Below, in pieces: positions 12,533 to 47,718 of a stretch of DNA of 60,791 bases. How positions within the stretch are numbered: the first letter of the stretch is position 1; each line of letters begins with the position of its first letter. Both the position numbers and the translations under genes were made by a program. The notes under the pieces are model-generated. The model did no database searches. It saw only the letters and a program-made list of their open reading frames with translations, and was not told the origin of the DNA. The stretch is from an uncultured Gammaproteobacteria bacterium. GTDB taxonomy: Bacteria > Patescibacteriota > Patescibacteriia > UBA1558 > 2-01-FULL-52-15. The stretch spans positions 1 to 60,791 of the forward strand of contig CAZIOU010000005.1 of assembly GCA_964540995.1 (NCBI GenBank). The letters run 5' to 3'.

Positions 12533-12706
12533 TTAGCCGACTTCTGGATTTGGCTTCTCGGAATAGATCAGGACCGTGCCTGATTCAGTCTTTCCAAGAA
12601 CTTTCTGAATCGTTTCAGATAGAGCTTCCATCAGCTGACTTTTCTCTGTTTCTGTCAGTACTTTGTTGACTGCCAGATCGACAGAGAATTTTACCCCCTT
12701 TTCCAT
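12533..12706 (-). CDS. Small hypothetical protein, 57 aa (below the ORF-track cutoff)
   Basis: Own translation: MEKGVKFSVDLAVNKVLTETEKSQLMEALSETIQKVLGKTESGTVLIYSEKPNPEVG. A perfect AGGAGG lies 6 nt upstream of the ATG and a terminator hairpin lies downstream. It faintly resembles a tautomerase-like beta-alpha-beta unit but lacks Pro1. Confidence 0.5.
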   Translation of the reverse strand: MEKGVKFSVDLAVNKVLTETEKSQLMEALSETIQKVLGKTESGTVLIYSEKPNPEVG

Positions 12707-12916
12707 ATAAACCTCCTGTTCACGATCAGATCCTCCCCTGCTTGTCCGCAGTTATGACACGCGACAGCCACTTGTACGCCCAGTCGGTCGACTTGAATAA
12801 CACGTAGAAAAAGAAAGGCGCCAGCATCGTGTCGGTTGAGAACGGACGGCGGAGCGATATATTAACCGCTCCATACGAAATAGTCGCAAAATGGCGATAA
12901 AATGAGCTATTTTTAT

Positions 12917-12945
12917 ATAATAGCATATATATCTATATTTGTCAA
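12917..12945 (-). promoter_or_regulatory. Sigma70-type promoter TTGACA-17-TATTAT
   Basis: -35 at 12945-12940 and -10 at 12922-12917 on the minus strand. It would give a ~200-nt leader before the 57-aa ORF. Confidence 0.6.
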
Positions 12946-12978
12946 TATAATGAACATATTTAATCTATTTCTCTCGTA

Positions 12979-13007
12979 TTGCATTTGAGCTTGCTTTGAA
13001 ATACTAT
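12979..13007 (+). promoter_or_regulatory. Sigma70-type promoter TTGCAT-17-TACTAT
   Basis: -35 at 12979-12984 and -10 at 13002-13007, about 45 nt upstream of the ATG at 13054. Confidence 0.5.
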
Positions 13008-13053
13008 AGGTACGAAGTTAGTAACGTTCCTTTAACTTTCAAGGAGGTCAACC

Positions 13054-13398
13054 ATGGCTGGCAGAATGCCTCAGTGGACACATCTAGTGGCCGATAAGTA
13101 TGAGGCTGGTAACGAAAGTCCCGTCTCACAGCTCATTCTTGATGATCTCGATGTCATCGATGAGTTTCAGTGGCTGATCATGGACACTTTGAATTCTGAA
13201 GTTAAGTCGGTAGCTCCCGATATGAAGCAGCGCAATCGGTATGAACTACATACCACCGATGAGAAGGGTAGATTTCACGACATTACTGTCTATGAAGATC
13301 TAATCTGGCTCAATCTGGGACACAGCGACAACACAGATTGGACAGCCGACCCCGACGGTACGGCCTGGAAATTCCTCATGGAACGTTCAGTACAATAA
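13054..13398 (+). CDS. Hypothetical protein, 114 aa (orphan)
   Basis: AAGGAGG lies 6 nt upstream of the ATG, and a GC stem-loop terminator follows immediately. No recognisable motif. Confidence 0.6.
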   Translation: MAGRMPQWTHLVADKYEAGNESPVSQLILDDLDVIDEFQWLIMDTLNSEVKSVAPDMKQRNRYELHTTDEKGRFHDITVYEDLIWLNLGHSDNTDWTADPDGTAWKFLMERSVQ

Positions 13399-13404
13399 TA
13401 CACA

Positions 13405-13430
13405 GGAGCCTCTTCGGAGGCTCCTTTTCT
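13405..13430 (+). terminator. Intrinsic terminator ggagcctc-ttcg-gaggctcc + TTTT
   Basis: Perfect 8-bp stem, tetraloop and T-run. It is a near-identical copy of the element at 14587-14616. Confidence 0.8.
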
Positions 13431-13573
13431 ATAATAGCCGAATAAAGACCCACCCGGATAAACCAGGTGTGTCGTTGTAGTCTCGCGAAGAGACAGTTAG
13501 AGAGAAGAAATTGGATGATACATCGACAACAACGAATATGATACTTCGAGGAATTGAGATAACTATAAATAAC

Positions 13574-13603
13574 AAAGCCGCTGGTATTTACCTGCGGCTT
13601 TTT
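13574..13603. terminator. Bidirectional intrinsic terminator
   Basis: aaagccgc (13574-13581) pairs with gcggcttt (13594-13601), flanked by an A-run and a T-run. It lies downstream of the minus-strand 67-aa ORF. Confidence 0.7.
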
Positions 13604-13626
13604 AAACGACACATCCTCCTTGTTCA

Positions 13627-13830
13627 TTACCATTCAAACTCGTCATTGATGATCCCCGGTTGATCAAGAGGAATTTCTTCCGTATTATCAATGATACACG
13701 CAGAGTGATCGCCCTCTCGCTCTTTCAACATCCGCTCTGCTTCCTCACTGGTGCTTGCTAAGACAAAGGATAATGCTGGGCGATACGAAAAACCCAATTC
13801 TCCGCGCCAGTTGATTTTGAAAAGCTTCAT
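13627..13830 (-). CDS. Small hypothetical protein, 67 aa (orphan, acidic C-terminus)
   Basis: AAGGAGGG lies 5 nt upstream of the ATG, with its own TTGACA promoter and a terminator. Confidence 0.6.
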   Translation of the reverse strand: MKLFKINWRGELGFSYRPALSFVLASTSEEAERMLKEREGDHSACIIDNTEEIPLDQPGIINDEFEW

Positions 13831-13878
13831 GTCGCCCTCCTTGAAGAAAGGAACCGTGTCTAATCTAGATAATATATT

Positions 13879-13907
13879 ATTTTATAATATAAACTATCTT
13901 TTGTCAA
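13879..13907 (-). promoter_or_regulatory. Sigma70-type promoter TTGACA-17-TAAAAT
   Basis: -35 at 13907-13902 and -10 at 13884-13879. The heptamer TTGTCAA also reads TTGTCA on the plus strand (13901-13906), followed 17-18 nt later by ATATTA/TATTAG, so this is a possible back-to-back divergent promoter pair. Confidence 0.6.
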
Positions 13908-14062
13908 GGCCAATCTGTATTACATATTAGACACCCATTCTTCTACAAAATAGTGTAATTAAGCCCTTCAACTATTGATTGACTTCTCCCCCTACCCGAT
14001 GTAAGGTTGGGCCGAAACCAACCGTTACCGTCCTTTCACATAACGCTTATCAGGAGGATGTC

Positions 14063-14566
14063 ATGAGCGAATTTCAGCATCTCTATGTTGAAGTAGGCGA
14101 TCTACGAATACTACAGCAACTTATTCGACTGTATATCCACGAAACTTTCGTAATTCACCAGGACAAGCCGAAAATCATGGTAGGAATACTGATCTGGGAT
14201 CCAAGCGCCGACCCACTGCCACGGTTGCCTTGGACTATTCGGGCGCAGCCAGAACCACTGTTTCCCCTCCTGCTTATTGATTGGGCTCGAATATCAGATC
14301 AAAAACCCAATGACCAGACGTGGTACAAGCTAACCAAAGAACCAACCTACATTCTGCGTGATACCGTCGGTTATTCAGCGCTGGCCCAACTCGAAAACCA
14401 ACTCGGTCATTATCTCAGTCTTCACGATGGCGTATGGGATAAAGCCTGGAGCTCCGTCCCAAAACCCGACTGTGGCAGCAGCATCGAACTAGGATTTAGC
14501 TTGAGTGCTGGCTACTTTAATGGTCCACTAGTCATCGGAAGGCGCTGGATGGAATATCACGAGTAG
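14063..14566 (+). CDS. Hypothetical protein, 167 aa (orphan)
   Basis: The internal ATG at 14063 is preceded by CAGGAGGA. The track start at 13979 has no SD. Two terminators follow. Confidence 0.6.
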   Translation: MSEFQHLYVEVGDLRILQQLIRLYIHETFVIHQDKPKIMVGILIWDPSADPLPRLPWTIRAQPEPLFPLLLIDWARISDQKPNDQTWYKLTKEPTYILRDTVGYSALAQLENQLGHYLSLHDGVWDKAWSSVPKPDCGSSIELGFSLSAGYFNGPLVIGRRWMEYHE

Positions 14567-14586
14567 ACAGACTACTCCGACACACA

Positions 14587-14616
14587 GGAGCCTCTTCGGG
14601 GGCTCCTATTCTATTT
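14587..14616 (+). terminator. Intrinsic terminator ggagcctc-ttcg-ggggctcc
   Basis: It shares ~30 nt (acacaggagcctcttcgg.ggctcct.ttcta) with the terminator at 13401-13432. Confidence 0.7.
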
Positions 14617-14640
14617 GACTCAACACAAGTTAATATATAG

Positions 14641-14680
14641 AAGAGTCGCCAGGCAGAAGCCACAGCGACTCTTATTTTGT
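14641..14680. terminator. Second stem-loop between convergent ORFs
   Basis: aagagtcgc (14641-14649) pairs with gcgactctt (14665-14673), followed by attttgt. Confidence 0.6.
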
Positions 14681-14718
14681 CTTAAACGAATCTAAGCATC
14701 ACGAAACCGCAAAACTCT

Positions 14719-15207
14719 TCACATCCGTGAGGGCAACTCGATCTGCTTCATCACCTCAATCGGAGGAAGGTCGAGAATTGCCACATCATTATCATAGAGA
14801 ATATAGGAGACCCAGATTGTCCGACCCTTCCCTTTGGTATCGAAGAAACCTCTATTTGACTTCCACGGTACGAAACAGCCGACACCAACATCCAATCGAA
14901 ACTCTGTTCCCATACCAGCCATGAAATAACTCAACACATCACTGCCATTCATGTGCCTCATGTCTTGGATGACCCGCTTCACGTGCGCTGCCTCATCGGG
15001 ATCGCAATAGTCATCCGGGACCGACAAGGCAACGCGACGAGTCAGGTTATCCGTTTGACGCAGAGTCCAGATAATCACCCTCGTGGCCAAATCTGACGCA
15101 TCGACCGAATAGGTGACGAACTGTTCCAGTGCCTGCATCTGCCGATCGGACATGCGAGGCGGTATATAGACCTGATCTTGACCTCTGACCCAAGGGCGCC
15201 AAGGCAT
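14719..15207 (-). CDS. Hypothetical protein, 162 aa (orphan)
   Basis: The ATG at 15207 is preceded by GGAGG at 5 nt, which makes it the preferred start over the ATG at 15219 (whose own codons supply that GGAGG). It has its own TTGACA promoter. No motif recognised. Confidence 0.6.
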   Translation of the reverse strand: MPWRPWVRGQDQVYIPPRMSDRQMQALEQFVTYSVDASDLATRVIIWTLRQTDNLTRRVALSVPDDYCDPDEAAHVKRVIQDMRHMNGSDVLSYFMAGMGTEFRLDVGVGCFVPWKSNRGFFDTKGKGRTIWVSYILYDNDVAILDLPPIEVMKQIELPSRM

Positions 15208-15258
15208 CGAAACCTCCATTGTGGGTGTGAATAGAAAAGAACTAGGAAATAACTAACT

Positions 15259-15287
15259 ACCATAGCCAAATTAAAAAGCTATGTCAA
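15259..15287 (-). promoter_or_regulatory. Sigma70-type promoter TTGACA-17-TATGGT
   Basis: -35 at 15287-15282 and -10 at 15264-15259, immediately downstream of the SET-domain gene. Confidence 0.55.
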
Positions 15288-15311
15288 CTAATTGTTTGGT
15301 GCGAGCCTCAG

Positions 15312-18202: not shown

Positions 18203-18256
18203 AACGACAGATTAGAATTAATTTTTCATTATAGTCATCCTGAGCCTGTCGAAGGA

Positions 18257-19264: not shown

Positions 19265-19266
19265 AA

Positions 19267-19690: not shown

Positions 19691-19735
19691 AAAAAATCAA
19701 GAAAAACCCCTCACCACAACGAATGTGATGAGGGG
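19691..19735 (-). terminator. Intrinsic terminator after the nuclease gene
   Basis: On the minus strand: cccctcatcaca-ttcgt-tgtggtgagggg, followed by tttttcttgatttttt. Confidence 0.75.
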
Positions 19736-19740
19736 CGTAA

Positions 19741-20862
19741 TTAATCGACTTTGAGAGTCAGTTGTGCCACATCGGCTCGGCGACGGAGCTGCTGATAGGT
19801 CCGTGCCGACGTACCAGACGATGCAGTCGGCTCGATCATGACACCTAATTCTAGCTGTGCCAGGTTGGTCGATCGACCATAACGCTCGACGATCTGCTGT
19901 GCCAGCAGAGCACGTCGTTCAGACAAACTCAACTGGGCATAACGCTGACAATCTACCACATGACCGCAGTAGCCACAGTGCTGCCCGCGGGGTAACTTGG
20001 GACTGATAGTACCTGTCTCCAGATCAGTCAGGTCAAAGAAAGGATAGACGTCAGTTACGGAAGCACCCTTAAGGATGGCCAAATAATAATTGGCCACCCG
20101 ACGCATTAGTCGTTGCACTTCATCGAAAGCTCCAGCCTCTCGCAAGGGCACATCGACGATAACATCGCGTCCATAATTATGAACTTGCATCTGTACCAGA
20201 GGCGGACTACCAGGTAAACGGGTACGGATAGCTGTCTCGTATAACCATTGGTAGATGGTGAACTGCGTGCCTCCGAGAACCTGATGCAAGGCGTATTCAC
20301 TGGGTTTGTAATCGACGATACGCGCACCCCAGACCTGACTGCCGTCAGCTAACGCGAACGTACCAACCTCAATCCGGTCAAAGATACCAGTGACTGTCAA
20401 TCCGCTCCAATCTATGGTCGCTCGCCGCTCCACCAACCGCTGTTCGATCTTCTCATCGAGACGCATCGGATGTGCCCGAGCGAAGAACAGCTTGAGCAGA
20501 TTGACACCACGGCCAAAGAATTGACCAGGTTGGTCACTATCCTTCCAAGCAACAGTCGTAGGAGCAGCGCGGCGACTATGAAATCCATGATCGCCTTTGA
20601 CCGCTCCCCACCACAGATTGCCGAAAGCTCCGATCAACTTGGATTCTTCTTGATAGGGGTAACGTTTGGTACTACGGTGTGGTGTGAAAAATTGAGCAAA
20701 CAAATAGTGCATCATCTGCCCATGTACCGCCGCTGGATTCTCTGGCACCGGAATCTCCACGATACCATCCCAGAATCCTTGCAACGGACAAGCGGTCGCT
20801 GTCGACAGGAACGAATGACTCATGCGATGCAACTTGGATTTCAGACTCCGTCGCTTACTCAT
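19741..20862 (-). CDS. PD-(D/E)XK nuclease with Cas4/AddB-type Fe-S cysteine pattern
   Basis: N-terminal Cys (TATACPLQ), GIFDRIE, IVDYKPS, QFTIYQWLY (QxxxY) and a C-terminal CGYCGHVVDC (C-x2-C-x5-C). ATG at 20862 follows GGAGGGAG and overlaps the M16 stop as ATGA. The track start at 20883 is GTG. Confidence 0.7.
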   Translation of the reverse strand: MSKRRSLKSKLHRMSHSFLSTATACPLQGFWDGIVEIPVPENPAAVHGQMMHYLFAQFFTPHRSTKRYPYQEESKLIGAFGNLWWGAVKGDHGFHSRRAAPTTVAWKDSDQPGQFFGRGVNLLKLFFARAHPMRLDEKIEQRLVERRATIDWSGLTVTGIFDRIEVGTFALADGSQVWGARIVDYKPSEYALHQVLGGTQFTIYQWLYETAIRTRLPGSPPLVQMQVHNYGRDVIVDVPLREAGAFDEVQRLMRRVANYYLAILKGASVTDVYPFFDLTDLETGTISPKLPRGQHCGYCGHVVDCQRYAQLSLSERRALLAQQIVERYGRSTNLAQLELGVMIEPTASSGTSARTYQQLRRRADVAQLTLKVD

Positions 20863-22130
20863 GTACTTCTCCCTCCACGCCACAGGCGCTTGATCTTGTA
20901 ACGATCAGCCCGTGTGACTGGACCGATGACCGTCAGGTAACGATTAGCTGGCGCCAGATAGCGCTTAGCTGCAGCATTGACGTCTTGCAGACGGACTCGA
21001 GCGATACGACGTCGCAACGCAGGATAGAGTTCCAGATTACTGTGTACGAGCAGTTGAGCCAAGAGCAACCGACCGATGTATTCTGACTCTCTCCAGCGCC
21101 GTTGATGGTAACTCAAGGCTGCATGCTTGGCAGCATCGAATAGATCCGTAGTGATACCACCAAGATAATACCGGTCCAATGTTCGACGTATCAAAGTCAA
21201 CAGCGGTAGGACTTTGGGCCGACCGCAAGAAGTAGCGATCGTCAGCAACCCGACTTCCGGATAGTGCCAGATGTCGGAATGTAGCGAATAAACCAGACCT
21301 CGCTGTCGTGCTTGTAACCATAGCGGCGAAGAATTCATATCACCGATACAGTTATTGAGTAACTGTAGAGCCGCTCGCTGACGATGACCGAACCCTGGTA
21401 CCGGTATAGTTGCTACCAACGATACTTGCTGTCGTTCTGCCCGCATGATGCTAATGCGACTGGTCGGTTGCGGTATATCAAATGAGCGTAAGGCAATCGG
21501 CTGCTGTTGCGGACTCAAAGAACCGAAAAGTTGGTTGATAGTCGTGATAACCGGCGTAGCCTCAAATCGCCCTACGACCGTGATGGCCATGATCCGGGGA
21601 TCAAGCAATCGCTCCCAGTAACGCAAAACTCGCTCTAAAGTCAGTCGCTGCAGACTAGACGGCGTGCCGACCACATGTCGACTCAATCCGTGACGGGGAA
21701 ATAATTGACGATCGCGCAACAAGGCGACTTGATTCTCAGGATCGTCTGCAATGTCGGCCAATTCTTCACGGATGCAATGGCCTTCGAATTCGAAATCAGC
21801 TTGGGTAAAGTCTGGGTTGAGCAATAGCTCTGCCATCAACTCCAGACCCCAACGCCAATGTCGTGCCGGAATCCTGATCCACCACTTGGTCATGTCCTCG
21901 CTGGTTTCAGCATTGAAATCAGCTCCCAAAAGATCCAGCTGACAAGCGATCTGCTTGCGAGCGCGGAAACATTCACCAGCCAAATGCTCAATATAGTGCG
22001 TCACGCCGCGCCAACTGCGAGATTCGTCAGCCGACCCTCGGCCAACTCCGATGGTAATAACAACGTCGGTATCAGATTTAGGCACGAACACATAAGCCAT
22101 CCCGTTCTTCAAATGCCCTCGACGATACAT
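20859..22130 (-). CDS. M16-family (pitrilysin/insulinase-like) zinc peptidase
   Basis: Inverted zinc motif HYIEH with downstream FNAETSEDMTKWW. GAGGAGGA lies upstream of the ATG. Confidence 0.8.
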   Translation of the reverse strand: MYRRGHLKNGMAYVFVPKSDTDVVITIGVGRGSADESRSWRGVTHYIEHLAGECFRARKQIACQLDLLGADFNAETSEDMTKWWIRIPARHWRWGLELMAELLLNPDFTQADFEFEGHCIREELADIADDPENQVALLRDRQLFPRHGLSRHVVGTPSSLQRLTLERVLRYWERLLDPRIMAITVVGRFEATPVITTINQLFGSLSPQQQPIALRSFDIPQPTSRISIMRAERQQVSLVATIPVPGFGHRQRAALQLLNNCIGDMNSSPLWLQARQRGLVYSLHSDIWHYPEVGLLTIATSCGRPKVLPLLTLIRRTLDRYYLGGITTDLFDAAKHAALSYHQRRWRESEYIGRLLLAQLLVHSNLELYPALRRRIARVRLQDVNAAAKRYLAPANRYLTVIGPVTRADRYKIKRLWRGGRST

Positions 22131-22178
22131 CTATTCCTCCTCAAAGGGAAGGTATGACAAAGAACCTTAGACTGTTGT

Positions 22179-22207
22179 ATCTAAAGCTAAAATGTCACAA
22201 GTGTCAA
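22179..22207 (-). promoter_or_regulatory. Candidate promoter TTGACA-17-TTAGAT (or 18-TAGATA)
   Basis: -35 at 22207-22202, about 45 nt upstream of the M16 start. Confidence 0.45.
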
Positions 22208-22513: not shown

Positions 22514-22587
22514 AGTAGGTTGGTAGATTGGTAGGATAGTAGGTGAAGATAGACAATAGCTACTGCCTACACACCTACGTGCCTACT
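22514..22587. repeat. GTAGG/CCTAC-word hairpin region
   Basis: gtaggttggtagattggtaggatagtaggtg ... ctactgcctacacacctacgtgcctac. There are five GTAG on the left and their complements on the right; taggtg pairs with caccta. Confidence 0.6.
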
Positions 22588-25625: not shown

Positions 25626-26288
25626 TTATTCAAGCTCCTGATGCAACTGTTTAAAGTTATCGACGATAAAATCTGCACCCGCCTGCTGTAGGACGGCAGC
25701 AGAAAATGAATTGGTGATACCGATTGCGAGACAGCCAGCGGCTTTGGCTGACAAGATACCATTATCAGAATCCTCTAGGACCATAGCTTCGACGGGAGTC
25801 ACACCTAACTTCTGCATCGTGACGATATAGGGCTCGGGATTGGGCTTACCTTGAGAAACTTGATCACCAGTCACAACAATATCAAAATAGGATTCAAGAT
25901 TATGAATAGAGAAAATTAATTCCTGAATACCCTTACTGCTAGATGTGGTGAGGGCAACCAGAGGGAACCGAGCTCGGATAAATTGCAGAAAATCTATCGC
26001 TCCAGCAAATAATGGAGTCTGCTGTAGAGAAGATTTAACCAATTGTCTTTTCTCCTCAATCAAATCATCAACATTGAGGGAACTAGTGGCGGCAAAATTA
26101 CTCAGAATGTAACTAAAAATGGCTTGGTTGGTTTTACCTTTGAAATGATCCCATTCTGAAGCTGGGATATCGATCCCATGATTACGACAAATATCCTGCT
26201 CTATCTTCACGTACAGTGCTTCCGAATCTACCAATACTCCATCCATATCAAAGATAAAGGCTTTCTTATTTACTAGTAGTTTATTCAT
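25626..26288 (-). CDS. HAD-superfamily hydrolase (beta-phosphoglucomutase-like subfamily)
   Basis: FIFDMDGVLVDSE, LTTSS, KPNPEPY and EDSDNG. The track start at 26327 is TTG; the ATG is at 26288. Confidence 0.8.
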   Translation of the reverse strand: MNKLLVNKKAFIFDMDGVLVDSEALYVKIEQDICRNHGIDIPASEWDHFKGKTNQAIFSYILSNFAATSSLNVDDLIEEKRQLVKSSLQQTPLFAGAIDFLQFIRARFPLVALTTSSSKGIQELIFSIHNLESYFDIVVTGDQVSQGKPNPEPYIVTMQKLGVTPVEAMVLEDSDNGILSAKAAGCLAIGITNSFSAAVLQQAGADFIVDNFKQLHQELE

Positions 26289-26463
26289 TGGGCTATTGTA
26301 ACCACTGTTATCTATTATTGCAAACAAAAAAGCAGGCTCCGAATTATTAGAATAATAATTGGATAAACCTGCTTTACGCTATAGCCTATTGGCTATAGGT
26401 GAGCCTCTTCGACAATTAGTATACTATTGTCGAAATTACTGAGCATTCTGGAAAGTCTGATCT

Positions 26464-26913
26464 TTAGACGTAGTAAATCGGACTGCCGTCTTCCATACAC
26501 GCGACTAATGCGCGACGCTGTAGACGGAAATTGGTACAACCTTGGTACAAGGCCCATAGTACATCCCGCGCCCAACCGCCTGGAAAATATACACGATTTG
26601 ACGGTTGATTCAGAAAGATACGATGATCCCAGTTATGTTGGTACCTGCACCATGTCAGGAAACCAACTTCATCATGTCGCAGATAGGAAAGTGGAAACCT
26701 CCTATTCATTACCGGCACACCTTGGATAGCAAAGCGACGAATCAAATCTCTACGAGACCAATGCAATTTGAATGTAGCATTGATCAGCCGCAACAGATCA
26801 TCAGCATCACACCATGCCCACCGTCGCCAACTCTGATGCCTATCAAAACTCTTTTCGGACACCCTGATTTCGGGAAGTCTGCTGATTGGCGGTCTGACAT
26901 ATTGAAACGACAT
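26464..26913 (-). CDS. Hypothetical Trp/Arg-rich protein, 149 aa (orphan)
   Basis: GGAGGGG lies 3 nt upstream of the ATG, with its own TTGACA promoter. No motif recognised. Confidence 0.6.
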   Translation of the reverse strand: MSFQYVRPPISRLPEIRVSEKSFDRHQSWRRWAWCDADDLLRLINATFKLHWSRRDLIRRFAIQGVPVMNRRFPLSYLRHDEVGFLTWCRYQHNWDHRIFLNQPSNRVYFPGGWARDVLWALYQGCTNFRLQRRALVACMEDGSPIYYV

Positions 26914-26970
26914 AACCCCTCCACAAAATGCTATTTACAAAGAACCGGCCACCGCTTTGATGGTAATTAT

Positions 26971-26999
26971 TATATAACATATAATTAATATTGTGTCAA
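26971..26999 (-). promoter_or_regulatory. Sigma70-type promoter TTGACA-17-TATATA (TATAAT at 19)
   Basis: -35 at 26999-26994 and -10 at 26976-26971. It overlaps the T-tract of the preceding terminator. Confidence 0.6.
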
Positions 27000-27011
27000 T
27001 AGTAAAGCCCC

Positions 27012-27251
27012 TTAATGAAAAGGGGCTCGGCAGAAGTCATCCTCCTCCGGCGGTTCCGGTAAAGGCGGTTGGACAGAAGTAGAAACCTCACACTGAGGAG
27101 ACTCATCTTGGAAATAAACTCCGCAATGATGTCGTTCGGCATGTGGCTGACACAACGACAACTTACACTGCTCACAGGTCAGACAAGCCTTGGTGAGGCA
27201 CCCACAGGAAGCCTCACAGGTTTCGTTGGAAGCATAGGCCAAGAAACTCAT
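27012..27251 (-). CDS. Small Cys/His-rich protein, 79 aa
   Basis: CEASCGC..CLTCEQCKLSLCQPHAERHHCG, then a Pro/Glu-rich tail. GGGAGG lies upstream. The ATG overlaps the stop of the upstream paralog (ATGA). Confidence 0.6.
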   Translation of the reverse strand: MSFLAYASNETCEASCGCLTKACLTCEQCKLSLCQPHAERHHCGVYFQDESPQCEVSTSVQPPLPEPPEEDDFCRAPFH

Positions 27252-27433
27252 GGTACCTCCCTTATGGTAGGCTGAGAAATGACGCCGGGTCGTTTCTGGT
27301 GCAATTTGGCGACACAGCCGTGATTATCTTGATGATGACGGCAATGCCAGTCCTGACAATCCGGACATTTCTCAAACGGTCTATTCAAACAAGGTCCGAC
27401 TTCACATTTCTCTGGCTGATCAGCTGGAGGCAT
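27248..27433 (-). CDS. Small Cys/His-rich protein, 61 aa (paralog-like to 27012-27251)
   Basis: MPPADQPEKCEVGPC..CPDCQDWHCRHHQDNHGC. GAGGAG lies 6 nt upstream of the ATG at 27433. The track extension to 27508 has no SD. Confidence 0.55.
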   Translation of the reverse strand: MPPADQPEKCEVGPCLNRPFEKCPDCQDWHCRHHQDNHGCVAKLHQKRPGVISQPTIREVP

Positions 27434-27491
27434 CCGCGTCTCCTCGAGGAAGGGATAACATTTACGATATAGAAGGAGCAAAAACAATATC

Positions 27492-27519
27492 ACTCTACAC
27501 CTGTACAACTGATTGTCAA
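27492..27519 (-). promoter_or_regulatory. Candidate promoter TTGACA-16-TAGAGT
   Basis: -35 at 27519-27514 and -10 at 27497-27492, directly after two terminator hairpins. Confidence 0.45.
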
Positions 27520-27532: not shown

Positions 27533-27605
27533 ACCCCGTTGGATAACTTCGTATCCAACGGGGTAAAAAAAGCCCGACTCCTTTCAAAGTCGGGCTAAAA
27601 TTTTT
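27533..27605. terminator. Two tandem stem-loops (second one bidirectional)
   Basis: accccgttggata/tatccaacggggt (27533-27564). Then A7-agcccgact-cctttcaa-agtcgggct-aaaattttt (27564-27605). Confidence 0.75.
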
Positions 27606-27882
27606 AGGTGAAGAAGCTCTGCAGCAGTCCGGGTACAGTCGTCCCCACCCTATTTAGGGTACACCTCCCGGACAATGGCCGTGGCCTTGATCACCTCCTC
27701 TCGGGGCGGTTAGCGAAGCGTGATGGAATCGCAGACAGCACCGAGAGAAGGTCCAAAAAGCTGATCATAAGCCATAACTCCTCCATTGCTTGGGGTATGA
27801 TGCGAGACTAAAGAAACAGGACCTCTTTCACCTCCCTCCTGTGGTAAGATCAAAAATCATAAGTACTCTAACATAGGTTTAG
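27606..27882 (-). other. Structured non-coding region (candidate sRNA or leader) with only tiny ORFs
   Basis: It is bounded by terminators on both sides. There is an 11-bp stem ccttctctcgg/ccgagaggagg, a 7-bp stem gtccggg/cccggac enclosing accct-aaat-agggt, and ends ggtgaa.../...ttcacc. A 21-codon ORF (27710-27775, MAYDQLFGPSLGAVCDSITLR) follows GGAGGAG. Confidence 0.3.
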
Positions 27883-27941
27883 CAGAAAAAAAAGAGCGGC
27901 CGTCGAGCTTCCACCAAAGGCGGATAAGCAGCTCGACGGCC
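27883..27941 (-). terminator. Strong intrinsic terminator after the 351-aa gene
   Basis: Minus strand: ggccgtcgagct...agctcgacggcc (12-bp stem), followed by gctcttttttttc. Confidence 0.85.
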
Positions 27942-27948
27942 GTATAAT

Positions 27949-29004
27949 TCACAAAACTCTACGTGCAGTTGCTTGGATGACCTCCAAGGGTTCCAGTCTG
28001 CGGGTATGGATGTCTACCACACTACGTATCTGACGTAAGTACGGCCAAAGCTCCGACACATGATCGCGGATGGCTGCTGCAGCCTGATGATGAAGTCCGG
28101 AAACTTTATCGACTTTGAAAGGACGATCGTCACCGCTCGAATACGGTGCTGAAGTCATAAGAACGATGTCTTCAGCCTTGATCCGACCATCCAGCAGATT
28201 ATGCCAGACGATGCGACCAGCCGTGATAACCGCCTGCAGATAATCTGGGTCGAAGTGACCGACGATCAGCGCCTTATTGGGCAAATGCAGCCAATCATAA
28301 CCACGACCAACAGCGATCACGGATTCGCAATGCCTAAGTTGTTCGATAGTGCGACCAGAACAACGAGTCTCCTGCACTCGATCGGCGTTACGGACCAGAA
28401 CTTCAGTCGCGTCGCGAACAACATCGCTAGGCATATCCGCATGATGACGGAGCAACCAATTGGCAATAAGATCACGATCAGTCCCTACGTCTGCCATATC
28501 CAGATCATCGTGGCCATCTTCACTCGCCAGAACCAGACAATCCCAGTCAGTATCGAGACCAACCAAGATAGCGTAGTAATGCGGATGAGCCAACACGCGA
28601 CGACATTGATGTGTCAGCTGTAGCGCCGAAGAACGTGCCTGATCCAAGTTATGCTTATGACCAGCACAACCAAGCGAGTCGTTGTCACTGCGTGAATAAT
28701 GATAGGTCACAAATAGCAGTCCACGCTTATTCCGGCATCTGCCATAGCGTTGCCACTCGGCCAAAGATGCATTGAAAATTGGCCAACGAGTATCAAACAT
28801 GCCACCGATATTTCTCCATGGCTGAATGATTCCCAGTGGTGTGTTGGTAGCGATCGGTAAATGCAGTCGTCCATCCATACACTTCAGAGCACCTAGTTCT
28901 GTTGGATGACGCGACCGATACTCCCTGCGCCGCTCCTGCTGACTCAGAAATTCCCTTGACTGCTTGGCATTGAGATCCATCAGGAATTCGATTCCCGTCG
29001 GCAT
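27949..29004 (-). CDS. Hypothetical protein with beta-carbonic-anhydrase-like CxDxR...H-x10-C pattern (CsoSCA-like), paralog 1
   Basis: KC42MD44GR46, TYH102YSRSDNDSLGC113. It is about half identical by eye to the neighbouring ORF. It has its own promoter, GGGGAGG directly upstream and its own terminator. The coding call is solid; the function is a hypothesis. Confidence 0.5.
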   Translation of the reverse strand: MPTGIEFLMDLNAKQSREFLSQQERRREYRSRHPTELGALKCMDGRLHLPIATNTPLGIIQPWRNIGGMFDTRWPIFNASLAEWQRYGRCRNKRGLLFVTYHYSRSDNDSLGCAGHKHNLDQARSSALQLTHQCRRVLAHPHYYAILVGLDTDWDCLVLASEDGHDDLDMADVGTDRDLIANWLLRHHADMPSDVVRDATEVLVRNADRVQETRCSGRTIEQLRHCESVIAVGRGYDWLHLPNKALIVGHFDPDYLQAVITAGRIVWHNLLDGRIKAEDIVLMTSAPYSSGDDRPFKVDKVSGLHHQAAAAIRDHVSELWPYLRQIRSVVDIHTRRLEPLEVIQATARRVL

Positions 29005-29065
29005 AGCCTCCCCGCCCGTGGTATAGGTTAAAAAAGCAACTACTGTAAAAGAACGACAAGAAAAA

Positions 29066-29093
29066 AGTATACTCCCCTGACATAAAAAGTCAA
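29066..29093 (-). promoter_or_regulatory. Sigma70-type promoter TTGACT-16-TATACT
   Basis: -35 at 29093-29088 (inside the 3' arm of the preceding terminator) and -10 at 29071-29066. Confidence 0.55.
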
Positions 29094-29137: not shown

Positions 29138-30178
29138 TCAGGCCTTCCCCGAATGCAACACTTCCATTTCCCGTGTATGGATATTAACCACCGCGGTCAT
29201 ATGTTGTAGATAGGGCAAAATATCCGGAACTTGTTGACGGATGACTTCCATGGCGTAACGGTGTAGGAATTCTGACTTGGCTTGCTTAAACGGTTTATCC
29301 AGTGCTCCCCGGTAAGGCGATGAAGCCAAGAGGACGATATCTTCCTCATTAATTCTACCCGCCTTAAGATTAGACAAAATAATACCAGCAGCCACGGCCA
29401 CTGCCTGATCAAAATCCGGATCAAATGGACCGATGATAAGAGCCTTGTTGATGACATGAAGCCAGTCAAATCCACGTCCGATAGCCAAGACTGACTCACG
29501 GTGTTCAACGTCGCCTAATGTTCGATCAACTTGTTTCATCTCTGCTACATGCTCAATGTTGCCTTTGATTAACGGGATGAAATCCAAAACCGTTCGCTCT
29601 GGCATATCGGGATAGAGACGATGTAACAAGCTGAAAAGATGTTCTTCATTGGTATCGGTGATAGTAGAGACATCAACAATCTCATTATTCTCACCATGAA
29701 GGATGATCGCGTCCAGATCCGTCTCAAAACCAATTTGAATCGTATAGGCAGTTGGCCGCCCTAAAATACCATCACACTGCTTCTTAAGTTCGGCCGTATA
29801 AGCAATAGACGCTTCGGTGTCATAATTGAATCCCCGACAACCGCGATGTTTCTCACCACGTGAATAGTGGTAGGTAACCAACAGCAAAGCGTTACGTCCC
29901 TTACCGATAGCATAATCGCGCCATTCTTGAAGTGCTGGGCTAAAAGCTGGCCAACCAATATCAAACTTGCCGCCGACATTGCGCCATGGCTGGATAATAC
30001 CCAGCGGAGTCTTGGTCGCTACCGGCAGATGGATGCGACCATCCATACATTTCAGTGTGCCGATCTCTGTCGGGTGCTGGGCGCGATAAATCCGCCGAGC
30101 GGCTGCTGTACCTGGGTTACTAAAAATACCCGAATGCTCTTTATTCAAATCAATAAGCTGTTGGATGCCTGTACTCAT
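29138..30178 (-). CDS. Hypothetical protein with beta-carbonic-anhydrase-like CxDxR...H-x9-C pattern (CsoSCA-like), paralog 2
   Basis: KC44MD46GR48, TYH104YSRGEKHRGC114. ATG at 30178 (MSTGIQQLIDLN aligns with MPTGIEFLMDLN of paralog 1), 16 nt after the atpC stop, no SD, AT-richer. Confidence 0.5.
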   Translation of the reverse strand: MSTGIQQLIDLNKEHSGIFSNPGTAAARRIYRAQHPTEIGTLKCMDGRIHLPVATKTPLGIIQPWRNVGGKFDIGWPAFSPALQEWRDYAIGKGRNALLLVTYHYSRGEKHRGCRGFNYDTEASIAYTAELKKQCDGILGRPTAYTIQIGFETDLDAIILHGENNEIVDVSTITDTNEEHLFSLLHRLYPDMPERTVLDFIPLIKGNIEHVAEMKQVDRTLGDVEHRESVLAIGRGFDWLHVINKALIIGPFDPDFDQAVAVAAGIILSNLKAGRINEEDIVLLASSPYRGALDKPFKQAKSEFLHRYAMEVIRQQVPDILPYLQHMTAVVNIHTREMEVLHSGKA

Positions 30179-35609: not shown

Positions 35610-35858
<249 letters not shown>

Positions 35859-37142: not shown

Positions 37143-37262
37143 CGATTTTTTTATTAGAATTTCTTATTCATTCAATATTGACAAATCTATAATATTGTGA
37201 CAAAACTACCCATAGTTCGATCTTTTTAGTGGCGACTCACTTACCCTAGCTATGGAGGAAGT

Positions 37263-37592
37263 ATGTTTCTGGTCATTGGTCAGTTTCGAGATGAAAAGAT
37301 GCATCAAATCTATACGTCAGTACTTTTATTAACTACTGATCCTCAGCTAGCCTATGACACTGCGCTCCAGCCAGAAAAATGCGGACACCGATTTGGAGAA
37401 GATTCGCATGTATATATTCTTGGTCTTCAGCCGGATAAAATCCAGACAAAAGCCAATGGCAGGCCCAAATACGTTTTGTGGCATGAATCTGCAGACTGGC
37501 TCGGTGGTCCACCATTCCGACGTATCAGATCTAGTTTCAAGGACTTAATTAGGGAAAACCCTGATAGGCTGGCAGCAGCACTGAACGACTAA
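37263..37592 (+). CDS. Hypothetical protein, 109 aa (orphan)
   Basis: GGAGGAAG lies upstream of the ATG, a perfect TATAAT lies at 37188-37193, and a strong terminator lies downstream. It is a lone plus-strand gene between minus-strand operons. Confidence 0.6.
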   Translation: MFLVIGQFRDEKMHQIYTSVLLLTTDPQLAYDTALQPEKCGHRFGEDSHVYILGLQPDKIQTKANGRPKYVLWHESADWLGGPPFRRIRSSFKDLIRENPDRLAAALND

Positions 37593-37647
37593 ACGGTCAT
37601 CTGACATTATTTTGTAAATCTTGCCACTCGACAACCATAGAAGATCC

Positions 37648-37689
37648 GACCCCAGACTATCTCTCCGGAGATTGGCTGGGGTCTTTTTT
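37648..37689 (+). terminator. Intrinsic terminator
   Basis: gaccccag...ctggggtc (8-bp stem with an extended imperfect inner stem), followed by TTTTTT. Confidence 0.85.
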
Positions 37690-41109: not shown

Positions 41110-41130
41110 ATATAGAGTGGTACCTAGTAC

Positions 41131-41931: not shown

Positions 41932-41942
41932 CTGAAACTATT

Positions 41943-45045: not shown

Positions 45046-45049
45046 ACAA

Positions 45050-46321
45050 TTAGGAAGTTAATATTTTAAGAAACTCTTGATCCGAGGTAAAAGGTCCAAT
45101 GATAGCTAGATTACTTCTGTTCCAACGAATAAGTGCCTGCGCGACTTTCCGTACATCTTCTCGGGTCACCGCTTCAATCTTGGCTAATTTCTGATCTTCA
45201 GTCTCGATCTTACTGTGCAGTAATTCTTGAGACTGCAAGAAATAGAGGTAACTACCCTGATCTTCTAAATTCAAGATAGTAGTGCCTTTGAGATATTCTT
45301 TGGCGCGATGCAGCTCTTCGACCGAAACTAAACTGTTAACCATACGGTCCAATTCTTTCTTGATCAGCTTGAGTGCTGGTACCAACCGTGACTTGTCTAG
45401 ACCGGAACGCACATAGAGCGTACCGACGTCTTCATAGGTCTCGGCACCAGCGCGGACAAAATAGCATAAACCCTGCTTCTCACGGATATTGATAAACAAG
45501 CGGGAGCTCATATTGCCACCCAAGATGGTGGACAAAACAGACAGTGCTGGCAACTGCGGATGTTGGGAACGTAGTCCTGGAAAGCCTAGAGCAATCTGCA
45601 CCTGTTCGGTTTCACGTTGGACGATTTTAATTTGAGGCTTGGTCTGATCCAGCTTAATGGCTGGGATCTTGGCTTTGGCTTTGGTGCTACGTTCCAATGG
45701 GAAATATTTATCAGCTAAAGCCATCGCTTGTTTCTCATCGAGAGCACCAGCGATACCAATAATCATATTGCCTGGATAGTACCAGCGTTTCTTGTAAGCA
45801 TAGAGCATGTCACGGCTGACAGAGCCACCGATCGTCTTACGATTACCGATGATGTCTCGACCGAGCACGGTGCCTTGGAACAGTAAAGCTTCATAGACAT
45901 CTTCGATATGCATCAGAGGATTATCTTCGTACATCTTCATCTCTTCGATGATAACTCCCCGCTCTTTCTTGACTTCAGCCGGATCGAAAACAGAATGACG
46001 CAACATATCAGACAACATATCCATGGCTAAGGTGATATGGCCACTATCTGACTTGACGTAGTAGGCAGTACGATCTTTGCTGGTGAAGGCATTGTACTGC
46101 GCTCCAATAGAGTCCAATTCTTTGGAAATTGCTAAGGTTGAAGGACGCTTCTTGGTGCCTTTGAACATCAGATGCTCGACGAAATGCGAACTACCGCTCA
46201 AAGCAGCTGTTTCTTGACGGGAACCGACTTTGTACATTACCTGGACAGTGACGGCTTTGGTATCTTGTTTGGGCGCTAAAATGACGACGCTTCCGTCCTT
46301 ACGAACAAATTTTTTATACAT
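45050..46321 (-). CDS. M16-family zinc peptidase
   Basis: HFVEHLMFKGT (HxxEH) and YNAFTSKDRTAYY. Confidence 0.8.
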   Translation of the reverse strand: MYKKFVRKDGSVVILAPKQDTKAVTVQVMYKVGSRQETAALSGSSHFVEHLMFKGTKKRPSTLAISKELDSIGAQYNAFTSKDRTAYYVKSDSGHITLAMDMLSDMLRHSVFDPAEVKKERGVIIEEMKMYEDNPLMHIEDVYEALLFQGTVLGRDIIGNRKTIGGSVSRDMLYAYKKRWYYPGNMIIGIAGALDEKQAMALADKYFPLERSTKAKAKIPAIKLDQTKPQIKIVQRETEQVQIALGFPGLRSQHPQLPALSVLSTILGGNMSSRLFINIREKQGLCYFVRAGAETYEDVGTLYVRSGLDKSRLVPALKLIKKELDRMVNSLVSVEELHRAKEYLKGTTILNLEDQGSYLYFLQSQELLHSKIETEDQKLAKIEAVTREDVRKVAQALIRWNRSNLAIIGPFTSDQEFLKILTS

Positions 46322-46385
46322 GAAAAATGAGTTAATTCTTAGCTAGAGTATACTGAAAATAGCGAACTTTGGCAATTATTACTGC

Positions 46386-46921
46386 CTAGACATTATTTCT
46401 GTCCCGATGCCAACGCAAAGGATTGGTGAGGATATAATTTTTAACCTTTTCATAGGTTAACTCCTCGACTATAACGCGCTCATAACATGACGGTTGCCAC
46501 TGAAAGCTGGATTCACCGTAATTATGAATTTCGCGGCTACAGCGGCTTTTGAATGATTGAATGAGTCGGAATAAATCAAATTTTTCTGGATTTCCTCCCG
46601 CCTCGGGTAGGCCCTCTACTAGTAGAGGGCTAATATCGTGTGCTCTTTGTCCGCCTTTGGTGGAAGCACACGATCTACCCCTTCGGGGTGGTTAATGATT
46701 AAAATTCCGTGGACATGGTTGGGCATTACAATAAAAGCATCAAGTATTACATAGGGATATTGTTGCGCTAACCAGTACCATTGCTCCCACACAATACACC
46801 CAATAGTATTCAGGGCCATATAATTGCCATGTATGGTGCCGAAATTATGACGTCGATTCTTGGTGCAGATAGTGAAGAAATAGGTACCGTTTTGACTATA
46901 GTCGAAATCAGATAATTTCAT
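46386..46921 (-). pseudogene. IS200/RAYT-type Y1 transposase, reading frame broken
   Basis: The N-terminal frame (from ATG 46921) reads ..YFFTICTKNR..VMPNHVHGILIINHPEG and ends in TAG TAG at 46616-46621. A second frame, open from ~46691, gives ..FRLIQSFKSRCSREIHNYGESSFQWQPSCYERVIVEELTYEKVKNYILTNPLRWHRD and stops at 46386. The total of 536 nt is not a multiple of 3. It contains a 20-bp perfect palindrome at 46611-46630. Confidence 0.7.
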
Positions 46922-46999
46922 AAAAAATAGAACCGCCCCATTAATCTGGGGTGGCCCTGTTTTTGTACCTGACACTATACAGCAATAAAAATATTTGGC

Positions 47000-47033
47000 A
47001 ATAAGAAACTCCCTCGACTATTTGCCGAGGGAG
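47000..47033 (-). terminator. Intrinsic terminator after the 90-aa ORF
   Basis: Minus strand: ctccctcg-gcaaatag-tcgagggag, followed by tttcttatt. Confidence 0.75.
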
Positions 47034-47041
47034 TAATCAAC

Positions 47042-47314
47042 TCAGTAGACATTCTGACCTGGATAAAGCTGTGGTCCAGAGTTGAAGCCACCTTCCAGTC
47101 GAACCGGAATCGTGGCCTGTCCGGGCACATCAGTCATGAAGTCGAGCGGTAACTGATTAGGATCCGTTACCCTTCGCGACTTAAGGTGAGGAGCTTGCTC
47201 AAGGCAGGTTCGACAGATGACGCCTTGCGCTACGACGGAATCGACATCGACTATGAGGTTGACGTCCCTTTGCTCAGTCGAAGTTCCACAGAAGACACAG
47301 GTGTAAGTCGACAT
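47042..47314 (-). CDS. Small zinc-ribbon-like protein, 90 aa (orphan)
   Basis: CVFC...CRTC pairs. GAAGGAGG lies upstream of the ATG. Confidence 0.55.
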   Translation of the reverse strand: MSTYTCVFCGTSTEQRDVNLIVDVDSVVAQGVICRTCLEQAPHLKSRRVTDPNQLPLDFMTDVPGQATIPVRLEGGFNSGPQLYPGQNVY

Positions 47315-47328
47315 ACGACCTCCTTCAG

Positions 47329-47718
47329 TTAACGAAGCACGATCTCGACTGGAAATCCCTCTGTCTCTATTCTGACAGGTGCTAGTCTCATTTGTTGGAG
47401 TTCATTCTCCAGCGTATCTACCCTCGTCCTCCAAGTTTGCTCCTCTTCCTCGAGACGAATCTTTTCGCTCGTCATCTCTTCGAGCTCCGCACGTGTTCGC
47501 TCCAAATGAACCAATTGATCTCGTAATTCTTGTATTACTTTGGTAGCTTTGACGCTGCCATCGAGAGAACGACAGTCGGAACAGATCAATCCATCGACAT
47601 TTTCAGCCACCAGAGTTCTTCCACTACTAACCTGTTCAATGAGAACACCGCTAACGACGAGGGAATTACCAAATCCCGACGACACCCATTGACCGCAAAC
47701 CAAGCAACCTTGCCGCAT
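47329..47718 (-). CDS. Zinc-ribbon + coiled-coil protein, 129 aa (orphan)
   Basis: CLVC...CSDC pairs, then a heptad-like ELRDQLVHLERTRAELEEMTSEKIRLEEEEQTWRTRVDTLENELQQ. CAGGAGGTGGG lies upstream. It begins 21 nt after the glyQS stop. Confidence 0.55.
   Translation of the reverse strand: MRQGCLVCGQWVSSGFGNSLVVSGVLIEQVSSGRTLVAENVDGLICSDCRSLDGSVKATKVIQELRDQLVHLERTRAELEEMTSEKIRLEEEEQTWRTRVDTLENELQQMRLAPVRIETEGFPVEIVLR

Follow-up and report, generated by a model that had tools for sequence, protein, structure and literature searches.

Translation initiation that dispenses with the Shine-Dalgarno (SD) sequence, by means of unstructured start regions or leaderless mRNAs, is well known (Scharff et al. 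2011; Actinobacteria, Deinococcus). The ribosomes of Bacteroidia are blind to the SD, and rpsU there keeps a strong SD for its autoregulation (PMC7797042, PMC9976891, PMC13000453). Loss of the anti-SD motif has been found chiefly in lineages without the ribosomal protein uL1 (Tsurumaki et al. 2022, PMC9297842). In this work, we have analysed a window of 60,791 nt, to which all coordinates below refer, of contig CAZIOU010000005.1 (assembly GCA_964540995.1), which we assign by sequence to Candidatus Komeilibacteria (Patescibacteria, or candidate phyla radiation, CPR). Our results show that in this window the conserved genes start without an SD, whereas 14 atypical genes carry strong SD sites, lie in self-contained units with their own signals and differ between relatives and even between strains.

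Two described types of element bear on these units. Phage morons (Hendrix and colleagues) are autonomous promoter-gene-terminator insertions between conserved genes. RNA thermometers (ROSE, fourU) and SD-masking hairpins are leaders with an anti-SD in cis. We know of no SD-poor genome that has been described as reserving its SDs for a mobile accessory class. A search of the full-text literature on SD, anti-SD and leaderless starts in Patescibacteria, CPR and Parcubacteria gave no prior core-versus-accessory split, the sole relevant item being PMC9297842. SD-poor lineages and autonomous cassettes are phenomena already known, and it is the division of the SD between core and accessory genes of which we found no prior description.

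Results

Two classes of translation start

The 40 nt upstream were inspected for 14 flagged starts and for all 63 plausible genes of the window, and for 61 starts the SD was scored as the duplex energy between the 20 nt before the start codon and the canonical 16S tail ACCUCCUUU, whose intact anti-SD form is ...GAUCACCUCCUUU. The initial annotation, made by eye, had stated that 14 atypical genes carry an SD and that 12 named housekeeping genes have none, and had proposed the bimodality of the anti-SD energy as a check. All 14 quoted tracts were recovered, at -8.7 to -12.8 kcal/mol, and the upstream regions of the 12 named core genes proved AT/C-rich, G-poor and SD-less in every case. The energies split cleanly, since the other 47 genes all lie at or above -4.3 kcal/mol and the gap between the two groups is empty. 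We call the SD-less genes (47 of 61) class A, and the 14 SD+ open reading frames (ORFs), which fall into 11 units, class B. The latter make up about 23% of the genes in the window, and none is ribosomal.

A purine tract stands 2-9 nt before the ATG at 14/14 flagged starts. An exact GGAGG is found between positions -20 and -1 at 13 of these 14 starts and at 0 of the 47 others, and the 64 GGAGG pentamers of the window would, if placed uniformly, contribute 0.5 to all 61 start regions together. Among random 20-mers of the window, 1.2% reach -8 kcal/mol. From the 3' end of GGAGG to the ATG there are 2-9 nt, mostly 4-6 nt, the gene starting at 29004 being short at 2 nt; the canonical spacing between SD and start codon is about 5-10 nt. 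The tight spacing and its conservation would imply a working CCUCC in the 16S rRNA, on which the class B genes would depend. The window also encodes uL1 (rplA, 6182-6862), and together with 14 well-placed, conserved SDs this argues that the anti-SD is intact here.

Class A starts have features of another kind. Their positions -20 to -1 consist of 36% A, 35% T and 11% G, and the strongest SD score in the class is -4.3 kcal/mol. Between -30 and +30 they fold at a mean of -5.1 kcal/mol, versus -12.1 kcal/mol for 60-nt windows inside these genes (42 tested; p=6e-8), whereas the start regions of class B, at -11.1 versus -12.7 kcal/mol internally, do not differ significantly from the rest of the gene. 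An mRNA without an SD needs an unstructured start region, and an SD allows the 30S subunit to dock on a structured leader; the folding contrast between the classes fits this. Some class A first genes look leaderless, among them glyQS (47740..49140, minus strand), which is SD-less and has a leaderless-type promoter, TTGCAG-N17-TATACT-N7-ATG, and a likewise SD-less HAD gene (start 26288) with TACAAT-N6-ATG.

Alone among the core genes, atpE (35610-35822) has, at a conserved position, a weak AGGA resembling an SD (window 35823-35842; relative L001 374-393); the tract reads CCAGGAAC in the window, at -4.3 kcal/mol, and CAGGAGT in L001, at -6.9 kcal/mol. Such a site would be compatible with a working anti-SD in the lineage.

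The SD+ genes form autonomous units

The 14 SD+ genes form 11 transcription units (Table 1), the genes starting at 20862, 27251 and 47314 being the second genes of theirs. The perfect TTGACA boxes and stem-loop terminators that the initial annotation had attributed to most of these genes are largely borne out. Ten of the 11 units have a promoter of their own, composed of a -35 box, a spacer of 16-17 nt and a -10-like hexamer. The -35 box is an exact TTGACA in seven of the 11 units, TTGACT in two and TTGCAT in one, and unit 11 (47718) has none of its own because it starts directly behind the glyQS stop. Leaders are typically 40-55 nt long and structured, and a hairpin with a T-run follows every one of the 11 units.

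In comparisons between strains, dS is measurable in six class B ORFs; dN/dS is 0.04-0.25 in five of these and 0.50 in the sixth, that of unit 4 (14063), and there are no internal stops. By these sequence criteria the class B ORFs are real genes. Two other ORFs of the same region, both on the minus strand, are probably not, namely 12726-12926, which overlaps the TTGACA promoter of unit 1, and 13376-13633, which has four in-frame stops in the same-species assembly L088 and a dN/dS of 0.62. In Pfam, 10 of the 14 proteins of class B are without a match, and an AlphaFold model of the 14063 family, made from a four-sequence alignment, was unusable, at a predicted local distance difference test score (pLDDT) of 39.

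Several small SD+ proteins (27012-27433 and 47042-47718, and 18528-18758 of L088) are rich in Cys and His, with CxxC...CxxHxxxHxC or paired CxxC motifs. They resemble zinc ribbons or HIT fingers, one of them fused to a coiled coil, and none rises above the Pfam threshold. The terminator hairpins at 13400-13432 and 14582-14614 (33 nt, ACACAGGAGCCTCTTCGGRGGCTCCT...), which close two different SD+ cassettes, are 94% alike, with a third, partial copy at 26401-26428, so that terminator modules may be shared between cassettes.

SD+ genes belong to the accessory genome

The closest relatives of the 994-aa helicase of the window (22583-25567), at 75-82% identity, belong to metagenome-assembled genomes, which are titled Candidatus Komeilibacteria or Patescibacteria where the title is informative and 'uncultured Gammaproteobacteria' in the others. 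All proteins of the window were mapped onto the loci of these relatives, and genes were called in the three closest, L001, L002 and L046; the same-species assemblies were L088 and L089 (~95% nucleotide identity) and L081 (~87%).

Within the stretch covered by L001, L002 and L046, 22 of 25 class A genes have counterparts there and 0 of 12 class B genes do (Fisher p=2.5e-7). The syntenic core comprises the atp operon, the helicase, dciA, pheS, pheT, gyrB, secE, nusG, rplK and rplA. In L002 and L046, dciA directly adjoins the core gene that comes next, and the window holds unit 6, with its M16 peptidase and PD-(D/E)XK nuclease, between the two; pheT and gyrB are likewise adjacent there and separated in the window by 4.2 kb with five SD+ units. 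In the gap between atpC and the helicase, the relatives hold other, different genes with an SD and TTGACA.

Turnover is also seen between strains. The unit 7 cassette (26464-26913) is missing from L081 and L088, from TTGACA to terminator and with clean junctions, and the unit 5 cassette (~700 bp, 14719-15207) is missing from L088, where the stretch 11653-13445, unit 2 included, is swapped for other genes. Unit 10 is present in L081, at 87% nucleotide identity, and missing in L002. From these patterns the cassettes look horizontally mobile within this bacterial group.

Synonymous divergence between the window and L088 is 0-0.085 in class B (0.54 for the CsoSCA-like gene of unit 9), 0.21-0.37 in flanking class A genes and 0.69-1.26 in the atp region. 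In nucleotide identity, most class B ORFs stand at 97.8-99%, 14063 at 95.0% and the CsoSCA-like gene at 89.2%, with flanking class A genes at 92-95%. We considered a recent transfer of whole cassettes from the low dS and keep the low dS as an observation only, because in class B the promoters and leaders are no more alike than the ORFs and mismatches are patchy everywhere. On one reading of the low dS, divergent alleles enter core genes from sister species, a route closed to species-restricted cassettes; on another, the cassettes spread recently. Under either, they are young relative to the core.

Divergence between these same-species strains is itself a mosaic: between 19699 and 32228, atpD-atpC is ~86% identical to L088 and the helicase-pheT stretch 92-95%, and most SD+ ORFs there are at 98-99%, with mismatches clustered. 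This pattern suggests frequent recombination.

The signals are kept over divergence and beyond the window

In L081 and L088, flanking bases have changed, but the two Cys-rich genes of unit 8 and the CsoSCA-like gene have retained their SDs. The family of 14063 is small, with three other representatives at the 50% identity level among 1.84 billion, and its homologues at 48% and 31% identity keep the promoter TTGAC[AT]-N17-TAA[AG]GT and the SD AAGGAGG, their contigs differing in GC content. For the 48% homologue, found on a contig of 55% GC (L091), the signals are TTGACA-N17-TAAAGT and AAGGAGG, and the genes next to it have leaderless-type starts, TAnnnT-N6-ATG. The 31% homologue has TTGACT-N17-TAAGGT, with the same hexamers as in the window, and AAAGGAGG.

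Directly behind atpC, an SD-less carbonic-anhydrase-like gene is followed by a paralogue with an SD and TTGACA in the window and in L001, L006, L007, L010, L012 and L086. The pair lies at 29138-30178 and 27949-29004 in the window and at 7603-8064 and 8200-8661 in L001; the protein type varies, being either ~350-aa CsoSCA-like or ~150-190-aa beta-carbonic-anhydrase-like (CxDxR...HxxC), and the pairing of an SD-less with an SD+ gene is constant.

In 80 loci of other Patescibacteria lineages, an exact TTGACA stands 41-116 nt upstream of 30% of the strong-SD starts versus 4.2% of the others (p=2e-13), and a strong SD is about twice as likely in non-conserved as in conserved ORFs of other Patescibacteria loci (p=0.0014). 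On the deep-family signals, the recurrent paralogue pair and the TTGACA association across 80 loci, we regard the two-class pattern as a property, read from sequence, of this part of Patescibacteria that goes beyond one contig.

Composition, paralogues and possible donors

The impression that the SD+ genes are GC-richer is true and modest, 49.4% versus 46.4% (p=0.002), with the whole difference in codon positions 1 and 2. GC3 and codon adaptation per gene had been put forward as a check, and the result speaks against a foreign origin: GC3 is 0.483 in SD+ genes versus 0.466 in the core (p=0.29), and preferred synonymous codons go in the same direction. Apart from amino-acid content, the classes differ solely at Leu, Arg, Ala and Ile, and class B makes more use of the rare AGA/AGG and of CTG.

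The CsoSCA-like protein of unit 9 is 45% identical to its adjacent SD-less paralogue. A search of 5.8 billion proteins gave one close relative, at 95% and from the same species, and the next best matches, at 45-48%, are orthologues of this paralogue, for which other Patescibacteria hold orthologues of gradually falling identity (97, 84, 69, 68, 57% and so on). Since the nearest matches outside the species are orthologues of that neighbour, the SD+ copy is, as far as these comparisons go, a fast-diverging paralogue that arose within the lineage. The SD+ M16 peptidase of unit 6 has same-species matches at 99% and 90% and all others at 30% or less, and the orphan of unit 7 (26464) has one homologue, at 94%, among the 5.8 billion proteins.

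PHROGs gave just two weak exonuclease-family matches, both to the PD-(D/E)XK protein (E=6e-4 and 2e-3), and no structural match; PADLOC matched no class B protein. Scans of viral contigs for three class B proteins found no relatives, and tblastn found nothing in phages and a generic M16 similarity of 26-27% in plasmids. A scan for tRNA genes found none in the window. As to signs of a mobile foreign island, there is no tRNA and no close phage or plasmid homologue; integrases were not searched for in the flanks.

A degraded RAYT/IS200-like transposase (HUH, '...MPNHVHGIL...') at ~46400-46930 on the minus strand adjoins unit 11. It is broken by a hairpin at 46642-46667 that matches the terminator hairpin of unit 9 (27907-27932) at 88%.

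Leader motif and a candidate small RNA

GTTCYTT is rare, at 11 sites on both strands of the window, six of them in the ~500 nt of class B leaders, and its pyrimidine tract resembles the 16S tail. In the minimum-energy folds of 5-6 of nine leaders, this tract or a variant is predicted to pair with the SD, whose predicted probability of being unpaired is 0.02-0.47; from these folds, the motif might gate the SD.

Between units 9 and 8, a candidate small RNA has four SD-like tracts, among them the invariant GGAGGTGATC, the exact complement of the canonical 16S 3' tail; in structure prediction most of this tract is unpaired. Compensatory changes are seen in an inner hairpin and in a GUCCGGG/CCCGGAC stem. 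A covariance model finds this RNA solely in the closest relatives (helicase identity of at least 75%). It might be linked to the SD+ genes. Rfam, in gathering and E-value modes, showed no known RNA in the window or in this region, and an mmgR-like match (E=0.0012) was rejected because it amounts to a terminator and a CU tract; an ORF of 17-21 aa in the region was rejected because it is not conserved in L001.

Other features of the window

A repeat of ~50 nt with two hairpins, GAAGCAATCCC..GATTGCTTC and CCCGCC..GCGGG..TCGCAATGACAG, lies in gaps of core operons in both orientations (4496-4547, 9339-9388, 30676-30725 and 60678-60729) and looks like a repetitive extragenic palindromic (REP) element. 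In the atpD-atpC gap, L001, L081 and L082 hold, instead of the repeat, a gene with a 23S rRNA intervening-sequence protein domain. The rplK-rplA pair is not followed by rplJ-rplL in the window. On the minus strand between 4556 and 6132, candidate identities by eye are a P-loop kinase-like protein (4962-5528) and a dUTPase-like protein (4556-4978).

Table 1. Coordinates and signals of the SD+ units, the candidate small RNA and two SD-less paralogues (SD energies in kcal/mol).
Feature	Position	Strand	Promoter and leader	SD (energy)	ORF and product	Terminator	Remarks
Unit 1	12495..12945	-	TTGACA(12945)-N17-TATTAT with TG; leader ~200 nt	AGGAGG (-11.0)	12533-12706, 57 aa, orphan	hairpin ~12495-12525	
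Unit 2	12979..13425	+	TTGCAT-N17-TACTAT 12979-13007; GTTCCTT 13026-13032	AAGGAGG (-11.9)	13054-13398, 114 aa, orphan	13404-13425	
Unit 3	13404..13907	-	TTGACA(13907)-N17-TAAAAT; GTTCCTT 13854-13848, predicted SD pairing	AAGGAGGG (-11.7)	13627-13830, 67 aa		99% identical in L088
Unit 4	13979..14607	+	TTGACT-N17-TAAGGT 13979-14007; GTCCTTT in leader	AGGAGGA (-10.3)	14063-14566, 167 aa	14586-14607	
Unit 5	14640..15287	-	TTGACA(15287)-N17-TATGGT; GTTCTTT 15242-15236	GGAGG (-10.0)	14719-15207, 162 aa, orphan	hairpin ~14640-14672	
Unit 6	19706..22207	-	TTGACA(22207)-N17-TTAGAT; GTTCTTT 22165-22159	GAGGAGGA (M16 peptidase); internal GGAGGGAG (nuclease)	20859-22130, M16 peptidase; 19741-20862, PD-(D/E)XK nuclease	19736-19706	two genes
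Unit 7	26326..26999	-	TTGACA(26999)-N17-TATATA; GTTCTTT 26945-26939	GGAGGGG (-9.8)	26464-26913, 149 aa, orphan	26375-26326	
Unit 8	27008..27519	-	TTGACA(27519)-N16-TAGAGT; leader GCTCCTT, predicted SD pairing	one SD each	27248-27433, 61 aa, and 27012-27251, 79 aa, Cys/His-rich	27024-27008	
Unit 9	27886..29093	-	TTGACT(29093)-N16-TATACT; GTTCTTT 29054-29048	GGGGAGG (-10.8)	27949-29004, 351 aa, CsoSCA-like carbonic-anhydrase fold family	27938-27886	
Unit 10	37178..37688	+	TTGACA 37178-37183; GTTCGATCTTTTT 37215-37227	GGAGGAAG (-9.3)	37263-37592, 109 aa, orphan	~37646-37688	sole plus-strand gene of its stretch
Unit 11	47000..47739	-	no own promoter	CAGGAGGTGGG (47329-47718); GAAGGAGG (47042-47314); unit energies -11.6, -12.8	47329-47718, 129 aa, CxxC and coiled coil; 47042-47314, 90 aa, CxxC	47033-47000	begins 21 nt past glyQS stop
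Candidate small RNA, ~300 nt	27569..27875	-	-10-like box 27871-27862			strong, 27596-27571	between units 9 and 8; L001 8700-9035, L002 9340-9719, L081 10030-10345, L088 5656-5816
SD-less paralogue of unit 9	29138..30178	-	AT-rich upstream				starts 16 nt past atpC stop
SD-less M16 peptidase	45050..46321	-					24% identical to M16 peptidase of unit 6; 38-43% in other loci

Discussion

We propose that the SD+ genes are probably a native, mobile and fast-evolving accessory pool that uses SD initiation inside an SD-independent genome, so that two gene architectures stand side by side. Class A genes would be initiated through G-poor, unstructured starts and by stop/start coupling in operons, and some first genes would be read from leaderless transcripts. 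Class B consists of autonomous cassettes that combine a structured leader and an SD with one or two ORFs and a terminator and have, in ten of the 11 units, a near-consensus sigma-70 promoter; they sit in the gaps between core operons and are gained, lost and swapped whole between strains and species. The proteins that they encode are mostly orphan or fast-diverging. Promoter and SD travel with the gene family and are kept by selection, and it is this that would make the cassettes a native mobile pool rather than foreign DNA that has not yet ameliorated.

The initial annotation had left two inferences open, DNA recently acquired from an SD-using donor or an initiation regime kept separate for accessory genes. 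The absence of SD+ genes from syntenic relatives, the preservation of their signals down to 31% identity and the contrast in folding between SD-less and SD+ starts favour the separate regime, and the fresh foreign import is not supported in that form, although the cassettes do seem mobile within the group. Could the SD+ genes nevertheless be fresh imports from phages, plasmids or a host, with the donor's signals retained? They are missing in syntenic relatives and vary between strains, most are orphans, they show a slight GC excess and a different amino-acid make-up, and their synonymous divergence between strains is lower than that of the flanking core. Against this, GC3 and the direction of codon preference are those of the core, the CsoSCA-like gene is nearest to the clade of its native neighbour, and neither PADLOC, viral contigs (scanned for three class B proteins) nor phages gave a match, PHROGs gave no donor and plasmids only the generic M16 similarity. 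Moreover, GTTCYTT and repeated terminators are common to unrelated cassettes, and the architecture persists at 31-48% identity and recurs widely among further Patescibacteria loci, so that we consider a fresh import quite unlikely. Remnants of prophages or defence islands, in which the cassettes would be morons or anti-phage genes, are a much weaker candidate still. The anatomy recalls that of phage morons, the proteins are small and orphan, unit 6 encodes a PD-(D/E)XK nuclease and a degraded RAYT-like transposase adjoins unit 11; yet PHROGs and PADLOC gave no phage structural, integrase or defence match, viral contigs, scanned for three class B proteins, and phages held no relatives, the cassettes are scattered singly between core operons and not gathered in a prophage, and with no tRNA gene in the window there is no tRNA integration site. 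As for an artefact of chance purine runs, wrong starts or a chimeric assembly, start calling is hard in SD-poor genomes and the ORFs 12726-12926 and 13376-13633 are indeed doubtful; but with 13 exact GGAGG against 0.5 expected, bimodal energies, the same arrangement in the independent assemblies L081, L088, L089 and L090, and a low dN/dS in five of the six measurable class B ORFs, with internal stops in none, we hold it to be refuted for all practical purposes.

A different proposal concerns regulation, namely that class B is a switchable regulon, translated once an SD/anti-SD route opens. The switch could be a change in the composition of the ribosome (as with bS21 in Bacteroidia), the melting of leader hairpins, or the small RNA nearby, if its exposed SD-like tracts were to bind either the leader pyrimidine motif or the 16S tail. 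The leader motif in 6 of ~10 leaders, the SD predicted as mostly paired and often with that motif, the SD-less/SD+ pairs of one enzyme type kept across relatives, the conserved small RNA with its invariant tract inside the island and the precedent of Bacteroidia (PMC7797042, PMC9976891) all point this way. On the other side, the pairing of the SD is not significantly above that in shuffled leaders, the motif keeps no fixed distance to promoter or start, and the two-class pattern extends far beyond the closest relatives, to which the small RNA is limited; we therefore rate a switchable regulon as a minority possibility. More speculative is the idea of two parallel initiation systems in which SDs masked in cis by GTTCYTT would be unlocked conditionally, by changes in anti-SD availability or by the clade-specific small RNA at 27569-27875 with its perfect SD mimics. 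In such a scheme, to which we give only a small chance, the SD-independent system would serve the streamlined core, and the SD-dependent one the horizontally circulating, fast-evolving cassettes and duplicate 'second copies' of core-type enzymes; if it were true, masked SDs would let an obligate symbiont switch its accessory genome on and off at the level of translation.

Several points weigh against a native accessory pool with SD initiation in an SD-independent genome, and have to be set against the evidence for it. SD-less accessory genes exist, namely the HAD gene (25626-26288), the gene at 11757-12398 and, specific to L088, a HIT gene and a 254-aa gene, so that accessory status alone does not imply an SD. 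The amino acids and the GC content of first and second codon positions of class B are unlike those of the core, with more Arg, Cys, Trp, His and Pro and less Lys, Ile and Ala, which is compatible with a more recent arrival, and so is a class B dS 3-5 times below that of the flanking core. Pooled over 288 genes, the -10 position profile rises only weakly at 6-8 nt, with no sharp peak, and for that reason the idea that class A is generally leaderless was dropped. Masking of the SD in the predicted folds is no stronger than in composition-matched shuffles (fraction at or below the observed value 0.07-0.71). The CCTCCT anti-SD motif has been found in just 48% of Parcubacteria (PMC9297842), and the 16S 3' end was searched for in the window and in every fetched locus and lies in none of them, so the intact anti-SD is something that we infer. 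Finally, the analysis covers only one 61-kb window and the 10-kb flanks of relatives.

What would a native pool of SD-initiated cassettes mean? SD-poor lineages are usually treated as uniform, whereas here the SD, neither lost nor in general use, marks one mobile, lineage-restricted class of genes, set apart as well by its promoter type, leader motif and terminators, and the pattern reaches dozens of further Patescibacteria loci. Should it hold across whole genomes, the flexible genome of uncultured ultra-small bacteria could be recognised by a simple signature in the sequence. For annotation, a single model of the ribosome-binding site is predicted to give systematic errors in start and gene calling; for regulation, the question is raised whether symbionts gate accessory genes at translation initiation; and for the ribosome, the pattern argues that the lineage keeps a working anti-SD despite its SD-less core.

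How does this locus compare with the systems already described? The Parcubacteria survey (PMC9297842) concerns the same supergroup, and SD/anti-SD pairing is not the default there either; a core-versus-accessory split is not described in it. The likeness to Bacteroidia is closer, since there too a genome depleted of SDs relies on other start features and a minority with a strong, conserved SD implies a second, conditional route, and the conserved genes of our window are similarly SD-depleted, with A/U-rich and G-poor upstream regions. The difference is that the exception in Bacteroidia is essentially one ribosomal-protein gene, whereas here it comprises ~23% of the genes, 14 non-ribosomal ones that are accessory and strain-variable and whose units have their own consensus promoters and terminators. 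In Bacteroidia the anti-SD is retained but sequestered by bS21, bS18 and bS6, the genes of which lie outside our window.

With the known SD-independent systems, the window shares class A starts that are far less structured and, in some first genes, a -10 box 6-7 nt before the ATG; it differs in that leaderless initiation is arguable for few of its genes. As in leaders with a cis anti-SD, a pyrimidine tract pairs with the SD in 5-6 of nine predicted folds, but there is no Rfam match, the pairing does not exceed that of shuffles and the geometry is not fixed. A foreign genomic island would likewise be absent from syntenic relatives, as the SD+ genes are, but these show neither an atypical synonymous composition nor identifiable donors. 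In anatomy the cassettes match the phage moron, also a self-contained unit between conserved genes, variable in close relatives and mostly of accessory function. Here, however, the host is a bacterial chromosome, the neighbours are atp, pheST, gyrB, the helicase and glyQS, with no PHROG structural match, and the cassettes are unlike their surroundings in the way translation starts as well.

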